DNA of 46,758 nt from positions 1 to 46,758 of the forward strand of contig NW_021834676.1 of assembly GCF_006345805.1 (NCBI RefSeq). Direction: 5' to 3'. This document shows, one piece after another, positions 9,982 to 40,158 of this stretch. The position numbers were made by a program, and so were the translations under genes. Numbering within the stretch: the first letter of the stretch is position 1; every line of letters begins with the position of its first letter. Below the pieces are notes generated by a model that saw nothing but the letters and a program-made list of their open reading frames with translations, ran no database searches and had not been told where the DNA came from. This DNA is from Octopus sinensis (Eukaryota).

Positions 9982-12122
9982 TTAGCCTTCATCGTGTTTA
10001 TGTTTCTTTCCATTATCTCTATGAGCTCTATGGTTCATATGAAGAGGCGCAGTATTTCCAATTAAATCGAGATCACTGCGCATGTCACCAGGCTTGTGTT
10101 CATGGGTAGGCGAAAGATGTTTGCGGGCTTCTTCGGCCGTAATTACACCCACCCCTTCTTCAGAAGCTTTTTCCGTTTTATGACTTCTTTCCTTTCTATC
10201 ATTGTTATTATTATTCTTATCTAGATTAAAATATTTCTCCTTCATATCATGAATTGTTTTGTAAATAGAATATAAATAACCGCTAATTCGGCTTTCTTCC
10301 ACCGGTTTCACATTTTCTTCCAGGTCTTTGTCTTTACCACCTTTCACTACAATTTTTCTCTTTGCAAATGATGCTCCATCAGGTACCTTGTCGTTGCTTA
10401 AACTCTTATCTAGAGCATCGATATCAGGAGCCAAAACACTCCCAGGTTGTGAAAGAGGGTCAGCCTTTTCCTTTTTCTCATGTTCATGATGTTTATAACC
10501 AGATCTCGCATCATTATGCATTAAAAGACCATGTATTAATTCTTCGGCATCTGAAGGACTCGCTGGTTTATCTGTTTTACGAACTTTCTGGAACTTTTTC
10601 TCATCTTCATGGACATGACTTTCTCCTGGTTTGGCGTCATTATGCATAAGAACTCCATGAAGATATTCCTCATAGTCCATTGGACTATTTACCGTTCCTT
10701 CTTTTTTCTTCTTGTCAGCAGTATTTTCCTCTTCTCCTGAATGGCCATGGTGGTCGTTTCCAGGTTTCGAGTCGCCATGCATCATTACACCATGTAAATA
10801 CTCTTCATAATTCTGAACATTAAATTGACCCCTAAATTTAGGGTTTATAGATTTTTTGGCATTGTCCTTGGTGTGATGAAGAAGGCCAGCCTGTGAGTCA
10901 CCATGCATCATAACTCCATGCATTTGTTCTGCTATATCTTGAGGCCCAGCTTTTGTGTTTGTGGCCACAACATTCTCTGATCCGCTATGTTCATGGCTGT
11001 GATCCTTACCAGGGGCACTGTCACCGTGCATCAAAACTCCATGCATTTGTTGCTCTATGTCTTGAGGCCCAGCTTTTGTGTTTGTGGCCACAACATTCTG
11101 TGGGTCACCATGTTCATGGCTGTGATCCTTACCAGGGACATTGTCCCCATGCATCATAACTCCATGCATTTGTTGTTCTATGTCTTGAGGTCCTGCTTTT
11201 GTGTTTGTGGCCACAACATTCTGTGGGTCACCATGTTCATGGCTGTGATCCTTACCAGGGGCACTGTCACCATGCATCAAAACTCCATGCATTTGTTGTT
11301 CTATGTCTTGAGGCCCAGCTTTTGTATTTGTGTGTGCAACATTCTGTGGGTCACCATGTTCATGGCTGTGATCCTTACCAGGGGCACTGTCACCATGCAT
11401 CAAAACTCCATGCATTTGTTGTTCTATGTCTTGAGGCCCAGCTTTTGTATTTGTGTGTGCAACATTCTGTGGGTCACCATGTTCATGGCTGTGATCCTTA
11501 CCAGGGGCACTGTCACCATGCATCAAAACTCCATGCATTTGTTGTTCTATGTCTTGAGGCCCAGCTTTTGTATTTGTGTGTGCAACATTCTGTGGGTCAC
11601 CATGTTCATGGCTGTGATCCTTACCAGGGGCACTGTCACCGTGCATCATAACTCCATGCATTTGTTGTTCTATGTCTTGAGGCCCAGCTTTTGTGTTTGT
11701 GTGAGCAGCATTCTGTGGGTCACCACGTTCGTGGCTGTGATCCTTACCAGGGGCACTGTCACCGTGCATCATAACTCCATGCATTTGTTGCTCTATGTCT
11801 TGAGGCCCAGCTTTTGTGTTTGTGGCCACAACATTCTCTGATCCGCTATGTTCATGGCTGTGGTCCTTCCCTGGTGTCTTATCCCCATGCATCATCACAC
11901 CGTGCATGCTGTCGGCAACAGTTTTTGGTCCAGCCACGTCATCACCACCACCACCATCACCGCCACCACTGCTAGCGCCATCTGGTGGAACATCAGTTTT
12001 CACATCCGAGGTATTTTGATCAATCGCCATTTCCTTAACAAATTCCTGTTGATTCTGCTTCTGTGAGTCCCCATTGACCTCGGTCTGGTTGCCTTGGTAT
12101 TTCAGGTCCGTGGAATTGGAAT
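9982..12122 (-). CDS. Terminal coding exon (~713 aa) of an unrecognised His/Met-rich tandem-repeat protein; putative metal-binding, possibly secreted or luminal
   Basis: Uninterrupted 2.1 kb frame with non-microsatellite composition ending HKHDEG-TAA; 12 copies of (M/L/I)HG(V/L)(M/L)MH(G/N)D; canonical 3' splice site (polypyrimidine tract + TTTTACAG|AT, phase 1) immediately upstream; N-glycosylation sequons NST, NQT and NTS near the exon start. Confidence 0.85.
10897..11934 (-). repeat. Coding minisatellite, 123-bp (41-aa) unit, ~8.4 near-identical copies
   Basis: AACTCCATGCATTTG recurs at 123-bp spacing (e.g. 11281, 11404); unit DIEQQMHGVLMHGDSAPGKDHSHEHGDPQNVAHTNTKAGPQ. Confidence 0.97.
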
Positions 12123-12180: not shown

Positions 12181-12572
12181 AAACCAAAACAAGTATTTTC
12201 TTTTTCCATTCAGTCCACGGTTTCTTACTTGGCCGCAACTGTGGATCCACATCAAAAACCACAGATAACAAAACAACAAAAGGACGTGCACATGAAATGT
12301 ATTAACTTGATGCTCAGGAAAGATGGAAAAAAAACAGTGGAGTTCTAGTTGTTTTTTTACGTTTCGTGCATAGCTCTTCGTCAGAAGGAGAAGAAAGGAA
12401 AAGTCCAGGAAACACACGTGTGTGCATACATGGCTGAAGATATATATATATATGAGAGGTCCTCTCATGATAACTGATGCAGTATTACGTGTTCTAACAC
12501 GACATCCACTTTAAGTGGGAGGATTAATACTTCTGTCGCTTTTTACTGCTTCCGACCACCTTTATTGTTTTA

Positions 12573-13599: not shown

Positions 13600-14008
13600 A
13601 TACGATTGATTTGTTTCAGTTCCTGTCTACAACTGAGATACAACTGAGTGGGCAAACAAAAATATGAGACACTGCGTAGTGCTTTTTTATATTTTGATAA
13701 GCCTGGAACTTATTCTATCAGTTTTTTCTTGTGACACCAGTAAGTTCTGGGGATGTAAATAAACGAAAACCAGTTGTGAAGCAGTGATGAGGGAGAAACA
13801 CAAAGACACACACATAGACTTACATATATACATACATATACATACAATTGATTTCTTTCAGTTTCTGTCTACAAAATCCACTGACAAGGCTTTGGTTGGT
13901 CTGAGGCTATAGCAGAAGACACATTCCAAGTTACTACACAGTGGGACTGAACTGAGGACCATGTGTTTTGGAACCAAGTTTGTTACCACACAGCCACACC
14001 TGCACCTA
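13600..14008 (-). mobile_element. Diverged copy of the bipartite tRNA-SINE
   Basis: Reverse-complement similarity to 4841-5262 (ACCACACAGCCACACCTGCACCT head; GGGGATGTAAATAAAC body). Confidence 0.75.
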
Positions 14009-14173
14009 TGTATGTGTGTTTATGTGTGTGTGGGTGGGTGTGTATGTGTGTGTGTATGGGTGTATATATGTATGCATGTATATATGTGTATATATATGTG
14101 TACATATTACATGTACATCTATATATATACATCTAGACATACATGTATACACATACAGGACGCAAAGGATCTT

Positions 14174-14260
14174 GCAGTACATATGTTTCGGGCTTTATTG
14201 AACAACTTATATCAATGCATAATTGATATAACAGGTAGATCAAAAGCCTTCTTCAGCCGC
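14174..14260 (-). ncRNA. Type I hammerhead ribozyme motif (minus-strand copy)
   Basis: GCGG-CUGAAGA (14256-14250)-long stem II-GAAAC (14189-14185)-AUAU-GUA (14180-14178)-CUGC; identical to the + copy at 14696-14782. Confidence 0.7.
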
Positions 14261-14695
14261 GTACAATTACCACACCAAAGACATGTATCACATTATAGCA
14301 GGTTTGAGAAAAAGTTTGAGAAAAAAAACCGAGTTTCTTTGGGAAAGTAAATCCTCATAGGCGTACATGGTATTGCGAGACTCCAAAACAAATCGTCCAT
14401 ACCGTTTTTTCACTCGATAAAGAATGAATACTGGGTAGATTACTTCATATAAGGGAAGGAATTGGATGCTGAGAGAAAGAGGAAAGGAGGGGACGGGGGT
14501 GAAACTTTAATGAAGTAATCTACCCAGTATTCATTCTTTATCGAGTGAAAAAGCGGTATGGACGATTTGTTTTGGAGCCTCGCAATATCATGTACGCCTA
14601 TGATGATTTACTTTCCCAATGAAACTCGGTTTTTTCTCAAATTTTTTCTCAAACCTGTTATAATGTGATGCATGTCTTTGGTGTAGTAGTTGTAC

Positions 14696-14782
14696 GCGGC
14701 TGAAGAAGGCTTTTGATCTACCTGTTATATCAATTATGCATTGATATAAGTTGTTCAATAAAGCCCGAAACATATGTACTGC
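14696..14782 (+). ncRNA. Type I hammerhead ribozyme motif
   Basis: Stem I GCGG/CUGC; core CUGAAGA 14700-14706; stem II GGCUUU/AAAGCC plus perfect 10-bp UUAUAUCAAU/AUUGAUAUAA hairpin; GAAAC 14767-14771; palindromic stem III ACAUAUGU; GUA cleavage triplet 14776-14778. Confidence 0.7.
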
Positions 14783-14982
14783 AAGATCCTTTGCGTCCTG
14801 TTTTTCTTTTGATACCTATATCCTATCACCTATACCACTAGCTGGCATATACAGGTGCTTACATTTATCAAGTATTCACCTGAATTTATTGTACCGTGTA
14901 TACACATATATGTATATCTATAGAAATACATCTATACATATACAGCTATCCATATACATGTATACATATACAGCTATATAAA

Positions 14983-15508: not shown

Positions 15509-15649
15509 TTGCTAACCATGAATGCTTTTATAGACTCAAAATTTACATTTTACTAGTTTGCATGATCACGACTCTCTGATGATGAACGGGGACGTGAAAC
15601 TGAGTAACAGCTTCTGAAGCTCTTTTTCGGCTTCGATAAAATAGTGTGT

Positions 15650-23826: not shown

Positions 23827-24028
23827 TGGTGCATATCAAATTCATGAGTTTCTGTGTTAACTGCTGCAAGTTTGTCAGTTTCTACACAGACAACCTCACC
23901 AGACAAACACACACGTATACATATAGGTAAATAGATAAATATTCGCACACGTAAATACACACACACACACACACGCACACACACACACACGTATGTATAT
24001 ATGTATGTATATATAGTTTGTATGTATG

Positions 24029-24049
<21 letters not shown>

Positions 24050-24059
<10 letters not shown>

Positions 24060-24073
24060 GTATATAATATATG

Positions 24074-24111
<38 letters not shown>

Positions 24112-24127
24112 CGTATATATGTATATG

Positions 24128-24163
<36 letters not shown>

Positions 24164-24590
24164 TGTATGTATGTATATGCGGAGCGCATAATATGTTCTT
24201 GTGAGCTGGCTGTTTAAATACGTCTGTATTTTTACACATGCAACAAACTCTGCGCATGTAGAGGCATGTGAGTGTGAACAGCACGCGTGCTTGCGTGTGT
24301 AGAGTGAGAAAGAGAGAAGACAAACGGACAGACAGATTGATAAGAATGAGAAGGATTTGTTTTTTAAAAATATTTGCTCTTTTACTCTTTTACTTGTTTC
24401 AGTCATTTGGCTGCGGCCACGCTGGAGCACCGCCTTTTAGTCAAACAAATCGACCCCACGACTTATTCGCTGTAAGCCAAGTAATTATTCTATCGGTCTC
24501 TTTTTCCGAACTGCTAAGTTACGGGGACGTAAACACACCAGCATCGGTTGTCAAGTGATGGTAGGTGGAACAAACCCAGACACACAAATA

Positions 24591-24655
<65 letters not shown>

Positions 24656-25134
24656 CGTATATATGTATATGTATATATATGTATGTAGTATGTATGTATG
24701 TAATGTATGTATGTATGTATATGCGGAGCGCATAATATGTTCTTGTGAGCTGGCTGTTAAATACGTCTGTATTTTTACACATGCAACAAACTCTGCGCAT
24801 GTAGAGGCATGTGAGTGTGAACAGCACGCGTGCTTGCGTGTGTAGAGTGAGAAAGAGAGAAGACAAACGGACAGACAGATTGATAAGAATGAGAAGGATT
24901 TGTTTTTTAAAAATATTTGCTCTTTTACTCTTTTACTTGTTTCAGTCATTTGGCTGCGGCCACGCTGGAGCCACCGCCTTTTAGTCAAACAAATCGACCC
25001 CACGACTTATTCGCTGTAAGCCAAGTAATTATTCTATCGGTCTCTTTTTCCGAACTGCTAAGTTACGGGGACGTAAACACACCAGCATCGGTTGTCAAGT
25101 GATGGTAGGTGGAACAAACCCAGACACACAAATA

Positions 25135-25199
<65 letters not shown>

Positions 25200-25676
25200 C
25201 GTATATATGTATATGTATATATATGTATGTAGTATGTATGTATGTAATGTATGTATGTATGTATATGCGGAGCGCATAATATGTTCTTGTGAGCTGGCTG
25301 TTAAATACGTCTGTATTTTTACACATGCAACAAACTCTGCGCATGTAGAGGCATGTGAGTGTGAACAGCACGCGTGCTTGCGTGTGTAGAGTGAGAAAGA
25401 GAGAAGACAAACGGACAGACAGATTGATAAGAATGAGAAGGATTTGTTTTTTAAAAATATTTGCTCTTTTACTCTTTTACTTGTTTCAGTCATTTGCTGC
25501 GGCCACGCTGGAGCACCGCCTTTTAGTCAAACAAATCGACCCCACGACTTATTCGCTGTAAGCCAAGTAATTATTCTATCGGTCTCTTTTTCCGAACTGC
25601 TAAGTTACGGGGACGTAAACACACCAGCATCGGTTGTCAAGTGATGGTAGGTGGAACAAACCCAGACACACAAATA

Positions 25677-25717
<41 letters not shown>
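24050..25717. repeat. Tandem triplication of a 544-bp unit containing a SINE 3' half
   Basis: GGAGCGCATAATATG at 24181, 24725 and 25269 (exact 544-bp spacing); units nearly identical. Confidence 0.95.
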
Positions 25718-27580: not shown

Positions 27581-28826
27581 TGGGTCATGCCATAAATAAT
27601 GCCGTTTTTCATACTTCTTTTATTTTTCAAAATTAAGATAAAGTTCTTTTTTAATCTAAAATATACTCTCCTTCATTTTCTACAATGCTCTTCCATCTAT
27701 CTGGTAGACTTGCAAGGACCCTTTTCCAAAATCACTTGTCCGTGACGAAAAATACTCTTCCAGTACTGTTCTGACCTCGTCTACAGAATTTGTATTTTTT
27801 CCGTCCAAATAATTTTGAAGACTGCGGAATAAATGATAATCAGATGGAGCAATGTCCGGCAAACATGGTGGGTGGGGCATCGTTTCCCATTCAAAATGCT
27901 GAAGCCTTTGGAATGTCATCCTCGCTGTATGTAGCCAAGAATTATCCTGATGGAAGAACACCTTATCGTCTTGAAACAAAGATAGTCGTTTTTCTTCAAG
28001 CGGTCACTTGAGTCACTCAAGCTGCTTGCAGTAGATCTCCTTTGTTATCATTTGGTTTGGGTTTAAAAGTTCAAAGTGGACTAAACCTTTCATATCTCAC
28101 CAAACAGATAACAACACCTGACGTGGGTGAAGACCTTCTTTAGCCTGGGGCACCGGTGTTTCTCCTTTCACTACCCACTGTCTTCAGCGCTTGACATTTT
28201 TATAGAGAACCCTTTCTCGTCTTCAGTCACTATTCGGTCGAACAAAAGGTTCATTGGTGAAACGTGACAGCAAAGAAAAGCACACATTCACTCTTTGCTC
28301 GCGAGTAGAATCGGAAAGTCTAATCCAATTTGGTGACTTTTCCGATGGCACGCATGTGTCAATGAATGGTTGAATGTTAAAATCCAAGCTTCTCTGCTGG
28401 TTCCTCAACAGTTACGAGGGGATTTTGTTCCACCAAGGCTTGCAGGACGTCCTCGTCGAGCTCTACAGATCTTCCAAGGCGAGGTTCGCCTTTTAAGCCG
28501 TGGTTTCAGGTTCAGAATTTTTGGAATCACCGTTGACAATGGTTTATGCTTATTGTCCAGTTCCCATATACTGCATTAATATTCCTCACACTTTCCATTT
28601 CGATGTTGCCTTTATTAAACTCATAAAGCAAAATATGCCGAATATGCTCTTTTGTCACTTTCATAATAGCTTTGGAAAAATAGTTGTTAAAACTGAACTG
28701 CACTCTTCAACACTTACACTAAGAATAAGTACAAGGTAAAATTACTACCTGCTTTTATAGCAAGTTGATGCGGGTAGTTTATTCTGTCCCCCTCTGACTT
28801 TTAATTCATGCAATTGAAAAAACCGC
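27581..28826 (-). mobile_element. Mariner (DD34D-type) transposon, defective
   Basis: FFHQDN...WETMPHPPCLPDIAPSDYHLFRSL; TIR TGGGTCATGCCATAAATAATGC after TA at 27581; other TIR truncated; inverted relative to 33324-34451. Confidence 0.9.
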
Positions 28827-31571: not shown

Positions 31572-31828
31572 ATGTAGGTGGTATACGAGTGGGTATATAT
31601 TTATAAAAAAGAAGTTTGAAAACGCCACTATATAAGATAAATTTTAATTTTCTTAGAAATTTTACGTTTCGGTTCTTCTTGAAAAAACGAACCTTATCAA
31701 AAATATTTTTACAAGTGTTATAAAAAAGTTCATAATTGTTTCTTACTAGTCTCATCAGAGTCGACGTGGTGATTTTTTTTTTGTGGGGGGGAGCATAATA
31801 GCTGTCTTGTGTGTTGACTAGATTCGTA
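31572..31828 (-). mobile_element. Dispersed ~260-bp repeat with two decayed hammerhead-like motifs (probable Penelope-like fragment)
   Basis: Close copy at 44801-45062; minus strand CTGATGAGACTAGTAAGAAAC and TTGATAA-GGTTC...GAACC-GAAACGTA. Confidence 0.55.
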
Positions 31829-33323: not shown

Positions 33324-34451
33324 AGAGTCATCCCATGAATAATGCAGTTTTTTCAATTGCATAAATTAAAAGTCGGAGGAGGACGGGATAAACTACCTGC
33401 ATCAACTTGCTATAAAAGAAGGTAGTAATTTTACCTTGTAATTATTCTTAGTGTAAGTATTGAAGAGTGCAGTTTCATTTTAACAATTATTTTTTTAAAG
33501 TTATAATGGAAGTGACAAAAGAGCATATTCGGCATATTTTGCTTTATGAGTTCAATAAAGGCAACAATGCAATAGAAAGTGTGAGGAATATTAATGCAGT
33601 ATATGAGGATCAGACAATAAGCATCAGCCAGTGTCAATGGTGGTTCCAGAAAATCCAAGCTGGAAACTACAGCCTGGAAGACGAATCTCATTCTGGAAGA
33701 TCTGCAGAGCTTGACGAGGACGTCCTGCAAACCCTGTTGGAACAAAATCCCATCGTAACTGTTGAGGAACTAGCAGAAAAGCTTGGAGTTGGTCATTCAA
33801 CCATTCATCGACACCTGTGTGCCATCGGAAAAGTTAGCAAATTGGATTAGACTTTCCAAGTCTAATCGCATGCAGAGATTGAATGTTTGCTCTTCTTTGC
33901 TGTCACGTCTCACGAATGAACCTTTTTCCGACCGAATAGTGACTGGTGACGAGAAAGGGTTCTCTATAAAAATGTCAAGCGCCGAAGACAGTGGGTAGTG
34001 AAAGAAGAAACGCTGGCACCCCAGGCTAAAAATAGTCTGTACTCACGTAAGGTGTTGTTAGCTGTTTGGTGGGATATGAAAGGTTTAATCCACTTTGCAC
34101 TTTTAAACCCAAACCAAACGATAACAAAGGAGATCTACTGCGAACAACCTGAGCGGCTTAAGTGAGCGCTTGAAGAAAAACGACCGTCTTTGGTTTCAAG
34201 ACGATAAGGTGTTCTTCCATCAGGATAATGCTCGGCCACATACAGCAAGGATGACATTCCAAAGGCTGGAGCAGTTTGAATGGGAAACGATGCCCCACCC
34301 ACCATATTCGCCGGACATTGCTCCATCTGTTTATCATTTATTCCACAGTCTTTAAAATCATTTGGACGGAAAAAATATAAATTCTGTAGACGAGGCCAGA
34401 ACAGTACTAGAAGAGTATTTTTCGTCACGGACAAGTGAATTTTAGAAGAGG
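33324..34451 (+). mobile_element. Mariner transposon, defective, 3' TIR missing
   Basis: MEVTKEHIRHILLYEFNKG (HTH), IVTGDEK, HQDNARPH, HPPYSPDIAPS; 5' TIR GAGTCATCCCATGAATAATGC; frameshifts and stops. Confidence 0.9.
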
Positions 34452-38958: not shown

Positions 38959-39570
38959 TAAATACGTGTTCAATCTGTAAAGACTGTATTCGCCCAGTCG
39001 TAGATTTTGTGCTGTGGTGGTTGTTTGGGCGCGAGTTTTTATCGAACCAATCTATGAGCGAAAGACTTTCAACAATGTCAAAGCCATCTTTTTCTGTCTT
39101 TTTCAAGCAGATTAGGTCCATTTTTAGATAGAAATTCACCGAGGAGAGCGTTGTTCAATGTCACCATCTTTTATAAAACAAGATTAGGTAGAGAGTAATT
39201 TCAAAGCGTTTTGGCTGCTATTTCTAGTATTTCAAATCAGCACGTAGACGTTCCTTTGTGGCTACTGTTAATCACGTAGACAATTTATTTCGGGTCAATC
39301 AGTTGAGTCCATTCTTAAGGGTTGTCCATTCTCTCAAGTGGGGTCTACTCTCCAAGGATGTCCATCGTGTCTTCTCGAGTCCATCCCTTCCCAACTTGGG
39401 TTTCATAGAGGACAGTGAATGGGTTTAATTTATTGAGCAAGTGTGGTTGGCAGGGCGGTGTTAAACTTGCAGCAGATTTCATTGAATTGAGGTTGTTTTT
39501 AGGGCGTCTTTCGTTGTAATGTCATCAGAACAGGACCGAAGTGAATAGGAGAAATATAATTTGGTCTATT

Positions 39571-39799
39571 ATTTACATTATTTACATTTGACGGATATTT
39601 GTCCTCATCTTGTTCATTGTTAACACAACGTTTCGGCTGATATACCCTCCAGCCTTCATCAGATTCGAAATTTCCCCCAAGACACCTGATGAAGGCTGGA
39701 GGGTATATCAGCCGAAACGTTGAGTCAACAACGAACATGTTGAGGACAAATATCCGTCATAAAGTACATAATTCTTCATCTCTTAAATATATAGAACTG
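39571..39799. mobile_element. Penelope-like inverted insertion with 16-bp TSD
   Basis: Arms 39589-39662 and 39686-39759 inverted; unique 40-bp tail; TSD TATAATTTGGTCTATT at 39555-39570 and 39800-39815; hammerhead motif in the arms. Confidence 0.85.
39681..39726 (+). ncRNA. Minimal (dimer-type) hammerhead ribozyme motif
   Basis: GACAC-CUGAUGA-A-GGCUG(loop)CAGCC-GAAAC-GUU-GAGUC; palindromic AACGUU in place of a closed stem III; antisense copy at 39622-39662 lacks the 5' arm of stem I. Confidence 0.6.
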
Positions 39800-40158
39800 T
39801 ATAATTTGGTCTATTTTGTTTGAAAGAAAGAAACAAACAAACAGAGGGAGAAAGAGAGAGAGAGAAAAGGGGAGGAAGAAAGAGGGTGGAAGGGGGGATA
39901 GAAAGAGAGAGAGAGGGAGATGTAAAAGTGAAACCACGTGGCAAAATGATAATGAAATTAGGGGACATCAGTTTGTCACGTGGCAAATTGTAGAGGATTC
40001 TCTGCTGGACACCAAACAGGGGCACAATGTTTTGATTCTAAGAATATCTCGGGCAGAATAGAAGGTTTCATTCATCAGTTTCTGGTGGTTGTGGTGGGGG
40101 AGGGCACATTTAATTAATCACGCGGCTCTACATTCATTCACCGACGCAGAGGAGAGAA

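Follow-up and report, generated by a model that had tools for sequence, protein, structure and literature searches.

A foldback insertion in an octopus genome carries hammerhead motifs on both strands and is probably a truncated Penelope-like element 3' end

Several features of Penelope-like element (PLE) insertions are documented. In the portion of Craig et al. 2021 (PMC8557442) available to us, an inverted, 5'-truncated PLE copy gives rise to flanking inverted repeats, insertion is biased towards microsatellites and the insertions bear a one-sided tail of 30–40 bp. The accessible text of its Files S1 and S2 includes Penelope-13_HM, with an inverted 5' copy and a hammerhead on both strands. 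The same partial text describes Hydra-clade PLEs as targeting (TA)n and frequently having U.U at positions 10.1-11.1, and gives a helix II region of 53 nt for the Selaginella element PLE-X1_sMoe, the longest outside the present case among those compared. The available sections of Cervera and de la Pena 2014 (PMC4209133) report dual hammerheads that lie on opposite strands, separated by 100–700 bp, as well as a base left unpaired between positions 9 and 10.1, a palindromic helix III and a D. virilis variant with a bulge in helix II; the legend of Fig. S4A, one such section, concerns a truncated PLE whose opposite strand bears a second hammerhead. The architecture, hammerheads paired on opposite strands and a PLE hammerhead from an octopus have all been published.

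PLE hammerheads are described as weak ribozymes. According to the sections of PMC4209133 at hand, they cleave poorly in vitro, and those whose small helix III is palindromic depend on another copy in the same sense. For the anole PLE, the available part of PMC11167929 reports a hammerhead that requires protein and is dispensable for in vitro insertion, the absence of read ends at the hammerhead cut site, and reverse transcription that begins at two nearby sites defining the tail.

We analysed a stretch of 46,758 nt from Octopus sinensis, called the window below. At 14156-14896 it contains two outward-facing inverted hammerhead copies with a tail and a 12-bp repeat. We consider it very likely that this insertion is the 5'-truncated 3' end of a PLE, and predict that its ribozymes are inert passengers. 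The features discussed are the following:

9982-12122, minus strand: exon encoding a conserved molluscan His/Met-repeat protein, acceptor at 12124-12123
14144-14155, no strand: left copy of the 12-bp direct repeat, probably a target-site duplication, bordering a degenerate TA/CA tract
14155-14448, minus strand: left inverted arm, read as the element 3' end in minus orientation, without the tail
14174-14260, minus strand: type I hammerhead motif, predicted cut after 14178 (C3 14256, G12 14189, A17 14178), in the sense of the His/Met gene
14449-14509, no strand: spacer between the arms (hairpin loop), matching the rest of the window no better than chance
14469-14503, minus strand: putative 3'-splice-site-like signal, AG at 14470-14469, with a branch-point-like pentamer ~30 nt upstream, 20/20 pyrimidines and CAG
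14510-14801, plus strand: right inverted arm, read as the element 3' end in plus orientation
14696-14782, plus strand: type I hammerhead motif, predicted cut after 14778 (C3 14700, G12 14767)
14802-14896, plus strand: one-sided 95-bp tail, matching the rest of the window no better than chance
14897-14908, no strand: right copy of the 12-bp direct repeat, where TA-rich low-complexity DNA resumes

The arms align over 294 columns with 95.9% identity, in agreement with the ~293-bp arms given in an earlier note on this DNA. They differ by 10 substitutions and one 2-bp indel. All of these fall in the inner part (182 bp); the remaining, outer 112 bp (14155-14266 and 14690-14801), which enclose the ribozyme, are identical, much as that note had described (~110 identical outer bp, with the substitutions further in). 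Its 12-bp flanking direct repeat is also borne out: the two copies are the only occurrences in the window on either strand, and they sit where the TA-rich low-complexity DNA that borders the insertion on both sides stops and resumes. Other TA/CA tracts share a 12-mer of at least equal complexity in 37 of 23,874 draws. The tail, claimed to be unique, is one-sided, 95 bp long and without an above-chance match elsewhere in the window; it is predicted to fold into two small hairpins (-14.4 kcal/mol). Capture of nearby DNA was considered as a source of the spacer and the tail and rejected, as the best scores of 27 and 24 against the window minus 14001-14909 compare with shuffled means of 27 and 26. 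No second copy of the foldback family was found within the 46.8-kb window.

Long, near-perfect inverted repeats around a short spacer would also suit an origin as a foldback DNA transposon or MITE of the Tc1/mariner or Mutator kind. On this view, a hammerhead happened to lie in the long terminal inverted repeats or provided the material for them, and the 95 bp would represent flanking or captured DNA. In a Tc1/mariner-type MITE, a TA duplication directly flanks both inverted ends. The inverted unit here ends in TA/CAGG and CCTG/TT, which we take to be one base from a Tc1/mariner-like flank, and mariner-like remnants are present in the window. However, the right flank is TT and not TA, and the direct repeat is 12 bp long and lies 95 bp past the right arm, exactly where the TA-rich DNA resumes. 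The position of the hammerhead, 19 nt from each arm end, follows the PLE plan, and an unrelated element at 39.6 kb repeats the asymmetric layout. We therefore regard a MITE as very unlikely.

The distribution of differences between the arms is uneven. Given 11 events, a clean run of 112 bp has a probability of 0.004 at the outer end, 0.009 at either end and 0.054 anywhere. Arm identity across the ribozyme is thus not expected from plain neutral decay of twin copies (P 0.004–0.05). Different family templates that conserve the ribozyme and gene conversion between the arms both fit, and selection at the foldback site is conceivable but not needed. An editing signature between the arms was also considered and dropped: 6 of 8 transitions would yield G-U on the plus strand, which is not significant (two-sided binomial ~0.29, calculated by hand).

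The earlier note had proposed a full type I hammerhead in each arm, and as a sequence motif this holds. The core (C3-U4-G5-A6-N7-G8-A9, G12-A13-A14, A15.1-U16.1 and H17) is complete on both strands and closed by three helices, with helix I open in both copies, as in type I. In the plus motif, helix I pairs 14696-14699 with 14779-14782 (4 bp, including one G-U), an extra A is found at 14707, and cleavage is predicted after A14778, next to the palindromic helix III at 14770-14777. Helix III consists of 2 bp and a palindromic loop; the ATG inside it opens 12 codons only. Helix II (14708-14766) contains a 10-bp apical hairpin at 14725-14749 and measures 59 nt, close to the ~60 nt claimed for it. 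Its base comprises at least 6 bp, with a G-C pair at 10.1-11.1 formed only if the extra A after A9 and a one-base bulge are allowed, and an A.C mismatch otherwise. The available part of PMC3088659 rejects mispairs at this position. In each arm, 19 nt separate the end of helix I from the arm end, and the two cores face outward on opposite strands, ~510 bp apart. The descriptor used for the search also admits a cut site at 14797; this is not preferred, as it requires an irregular helix III of 28 nt.

A strict descriptor finds only these two cores in the window, with 0.04 matches per shuffled window (100 shuffles). A relaxed descriptor averages 0.28 matches over 60 resampled windows, and the two copies do not count as independent matches; the motif is therefore convincing through its geometry and position, and not through rarity alone. 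Of 200 shuffles, 198 fold less well than the 59-nt helix II (z -3.3), and the whole 101-nt motif does not outfold its shuffles (z -0.6). An Rfam search of the arms returned no hammerhead match at E up to 10. The same search also misses a textbook minimal pair at 39.6 kb, so that the miss on the arms says little.

A second, decayed motif had been suggested to precede the plus copy. The core-like words at 14600 and 14621 are there as described, but the stretch 14600-14631 (plus strand) does not qualify as a hammerhead: it has A in place of C3, no helix I and at most 2–3 helix II pairs. A motif this loose arises in 5.9% of 5000 resampled 190-nt arms.

Further hammerhead-like sequences are scattered over the window. 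A second foldback with the same plan lies at 39555-39815, with a 16-bp direct repeat and a 27-bp tail. Its arms (39577-39662 and 39686-39772, 87 columns) carry minimal hammerheads facing outward at 39662 on the minus strand and 39686 on the plus strand, with helix I broken in both copies. It shares no sequence with the 14-kb foldback (local score 19). The 37 nt of its core and helix II are identical between the arms, with 8 differences in the other 50 columns (~0.012, calculated by hand). Decayed cores are found at 12384 (minus strand), a minimal one in the sense of the His/Met gene, ~260 nt before the acceptor and with damaged helices I and II, and at 15576-15610 (plus strand), followed by a (TG)n tract. 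In the latter, helix III and the 3' side of helix I resemble Hydra-clade motifs by eye. Identical weak core-like words at 31758 and 44990 (both minus strand) lie in two copies of a dispersed repeat, and their helices are unconvincing. Hammerhead remnants are thus common in this region: within 47 kb there is an inverted pair at each of two places and, in addition, two decayed cores.

The surrounding DNA is microsatellite-rich and contains other repeats. Two inverted copies of ~1.1 kb (27728-28826 and 33344-34442), 86–93% alike and 4.5 kb apart, are presumably mariner-like, and we take further remnants in the window to be LINE- and mariner-like. A tandem duplication with a period of ~544 bp occupies 24000-25700 and includes identical frames at 24441 and 24985.

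The Penelope-like origin suggested in the earlier note agrees with the architecture and the literature, but no parent was recovered. The assignment rests on architecture because no parent reverse transcriptase (RT) or endonuclease was found, and we assign no clade. A 53-aa open stretch of the arm, whose likeness by eye to a GIY-YIG C-terminus was considered, matched none of 1.84 billion representatives and none of 15 candidates in a longer-protein search; the likeness was dropped. All three element frames tested against Pfam returned 0 families; among them is a frame that runs open through the tail for 50 codons, counted from 14745. The arm holds only ~250 nt upstream of the motif, which may all be 3' UTR.

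The exact motif pattern had 0 matches in metagenome contigs. A loose pattern had 24 matches in metagenome contigs and 1 in viral contigs, none of them related. Helix I reaches at least 5 bp in 2 of these 25, and the likeness to the element never extends beyond one 20-nt match, so that we treat them as chance or unrelated. One metagenome contig (L001, 1501-1578, minus strand) contains a plausible long-helix-II hammerhead with a 5-bp helix I and a G-rich helix II base; its helix III palindrome is the same as in the window element, and the sequence is otherwise unrelated. The long-armed sequence of the foldback itself was not found in the open-access literature. Table 1 of PMC13282606, the part of that work at hand, gives 31 recently active Penelope-like families for O. 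vulgaris, and the foldback family may already be among them.

The missing coding remnant also bears on the nature of the donor, which could have been a short non-coding hammerhead unit of the non-LTR retrozyme type (~390–450 bp), mobilised by PLE enzymes and inserted as an inverted pair by the same chemistry. Arm and tail together span ~390 bp, comparable to the mussel retrozyme repeats of 350–390 bp in the available text of PMC7229834, and a preprint (bioRxiv 10.64898/2026.07.22.740005), in the part accessible, derives retrozymes from PLE pseudo-LTRs. However, the defining head-to-tail repeat is absent. The 4-bp helix I and the PLE-typical extra base differ from the 6-bp helix I of canonical retrozyme motifs, as far as these are given in the sections of PMC4209133 at hand. 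We consider such a donor extremely unlikely.

For the preferred PLE origin, a sequence of steps can be proposed by analogy with the PLE literature. An element-encoded GIY-YIG endonuclease would nick the TA-rich target. Reverse transcription would begin from the tail end of this element's RNA and stop after ~390 nt. A second copy, its start lying 19 nt beyond the ribozyme, would be joined in inverted orientation, head to head. Both copies would be cut short at their 5' ends, and repair would leave the 12-bp duplication. The copy ends at 14896 and 14801 may represent two reverse transcription starts, as in the anole element. In the parent, the hammerhead would be part of the pseudo-LTR and process the element RNA either in dimeric form or assisted by protein.

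The fate of a transcript from the insertion itself is predicted to be different. Read-through RNA at the foldback would zip into a 294-bp duplex; for the minus-strand transcript, a single long hairpin of -517.5 kcal/mol is predicted, and imposing the ribozyme fold on read-through RNA would cost a predicted 134.6 kcal/mol on either strand. Even in isolation, the 101-nt monomer fold is predicted to lie 2.6–6.0 kcal/mol above the ensemble, and 12.8 kcal/mol above it in a 257-nt context. The helix III palindrome can form a predicted 8-bp self-duplex of -7.0 kcal/mol, and one transcript of the locus contains only one same-sense motif copy. Lunse et al. 2017 is reportedly a paper on dimer cleavage by PLE hammerheads.

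It had been proposed that the minus copy could cleave the nascent RNA unless masked by the opposite arm, so that the element may act as a self-silenced ribozyme. Masking is supported by the folding predictions, but the self-silenced design is not, as the masking applies to read-through from either side. It follows automatically from outward-facing inverted copies and is thus no evidence of regulatory design; on these models, it is probably real physics but a by-product. The cleavage claim is weak, given the 2-bp helix III and the missing same-sense partner. Since the antisense arm is met first and no same-sense partner exists, cleavage is predicted to be negligible. If the locus is transcribed, the duplex would, on general grounds, more likely be a substrate for A-to-I editing or small-RNA production.

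The gene concerned is the His/Met gene on the minus strand. The insertion lies 2.03 kb from its acceptor (exon boundary 12122), matching the 2 kb stated previously. The exon encodes repeated His-Gly-Val-Met/Leu-Met-His-Gly motifs and contains a 123-bp (41-codon) tandem array of ~8 copies. Among 27 homologues, an uncharacterised protein of Octopus bimaculoides ranks first with 87% identity, followed by Argonauta (59%) and bivalves (27–44%). The protein has no Pfam family and no usable ESM Atlas match; that it is metal-binding and secreted is a guess. The acceptor at 12124-12123 is rated good. Bivalve homologues start with a hydrophobic stretch that is absent from the octopus exon, so that an upstream exon is expected; both cephalopod database entries begin at an internal Met. 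A tblastn search with the 27 homologues gave no match to such an exon. No signal-peptide-like exon was seen before 19657 and none was convincing beyond, and no short homologue was found. Judged from the sequence, an intronic position of the foldback is plausible.

The spacer contains an acceptor-like signal in the hairpin loop, in the sense of the host gene. Of 2263 YAG sites in the window, 11 have at least 18/20 pyrimidines, the spacer site among them. Of the five sites that reach 20/20, all but the spacer site are part of CT microsatellites, and the spacer site is accompanied by a branch-like pentamer. Introns are retained in PLEs, and that of D. virilis terminates at helix I, according to the available sections of PMC4209133; the spacer signal may therefore be the intron end of the parent. 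If so, the PLE family would couple splicing to the release of a long-armed hammerhead. A splice-gated ribozyme can be envisaged at the foldback itself: the minus-strand pre-mRNA would splice into the spacer acceptor, the mask would become intron, the sense hammerhead would become part of a cryptic exon, and the mis-spliced RNA would cut itself. We give this scenario only the slightest chance, and the foldback would matter much more if splicing into the loop were shown to release the ribozyme.

The signal is also relevant to a broader reading as an exapted, conditionally silenced ribozyme, in which the minus hammerhead cuts the His/Met pre-mRNA and the opposite arm restrains it until spacer-acceptor splicing, editing or a helicase releases it. 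The minus copy is in the gene sense, 2 kb before the acceptor, the arms are identical over the ribozyme and the spacer holds a strong acceptor-like site. However, masking requires no selection, helix III has 2 bp, a same-sense partner is absent, the helix II base is irregular, and the predicted ground state is a fold other than the ribozyme monomer. After splicing, pairing between the arms would persist until they are unwound. The search for the upstream exon did not place it, and PLE hammerheads are weak or protein-dependent in the available parts of PMC4209133 and PMC11167929. We found nothing on point about a self-silenced intronic ribozyme in the open-access literature. Exaptation is accordingly only barely conceivable to us, and a PLE remnant with passenger ribozymes is the reading we retain for the comparison below.

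Like the PLE insertions of Craig et al. 2021, the foldback has an inverted 5'-truncated copy, a one-sided tail, an end-near hammerhead on both strands and a TA-microsatellite-like target. It differs from them in having no RT or endonuclease frame, a discernible 12-bp duplication and a tail of 95 bp, compared with 30–40 bp for the insertions in the portion of PMC8557442 at hand. Two general PLE traits are found in the foldback: an AT-rich or microsatellite target with a duplication of variable length, here the 12-bp repeat in TA/CA-rich flanks, and, in every pseudo-LTR copy, a hammerhead close to the 3' end. The motif resembles the PLE hammerheads of D. virilis, Aedes and Saccoglossus in having CUGANGA plus an extra base, a short helix I and a palindromic helix III. 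As with variants in the available sections of PMC4209133, G10.1-C11.1 can form with one bulge, and the spacing of the opposite-strand pair is alike. Helix II and its loop, at 59 nt, exceed the ~25 nt or less in the rows of Fig. S3 of that paper that were compared by eye. We found nothing on point about a long helix II in PLE motifs in the open-access literature.

Hydra-clade PLEs, including Hydra-1_Obim from Octopus bimaculoides, resemble the foldback in their (TA)n targets. Mismatches at 10.1-11.1 are common in them (U.U), at a position where the foldback motif may have A.C, and their 3' hammerhead has a full helix III. In the text available, the 3' end and hammerhead of Hydra-1_Obim are unlike the foldback when compared by eye, and identity with Naiad or Hydra-1_Obim was rejected because no likeness was seen. 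Three of four short foldback probes are absent from the supplement text of PMC8557442 and the fourth occurs once in an unrelated context, in a text whose line breaks could hide a match.

Non-LTR retrozymes resemble the foldback in being short non-coding units of similar length with a type I hammerhead. They are arranged head to tail in tandem, whereas the foldback is an inverted pair, and the window contains no direct repeat of the unit; the foldback locus, unlike these retrozymes, offers no route to a circular monomer. The naturally occurring 59-nt helix II variant is a usable test substrate for PLE hammerhead function. Overall, the foldback extends a well-known class of PLE insertions by one hammerhead-bearing 3' end that has probably not been described before and whose helix II and tail are unusually long.
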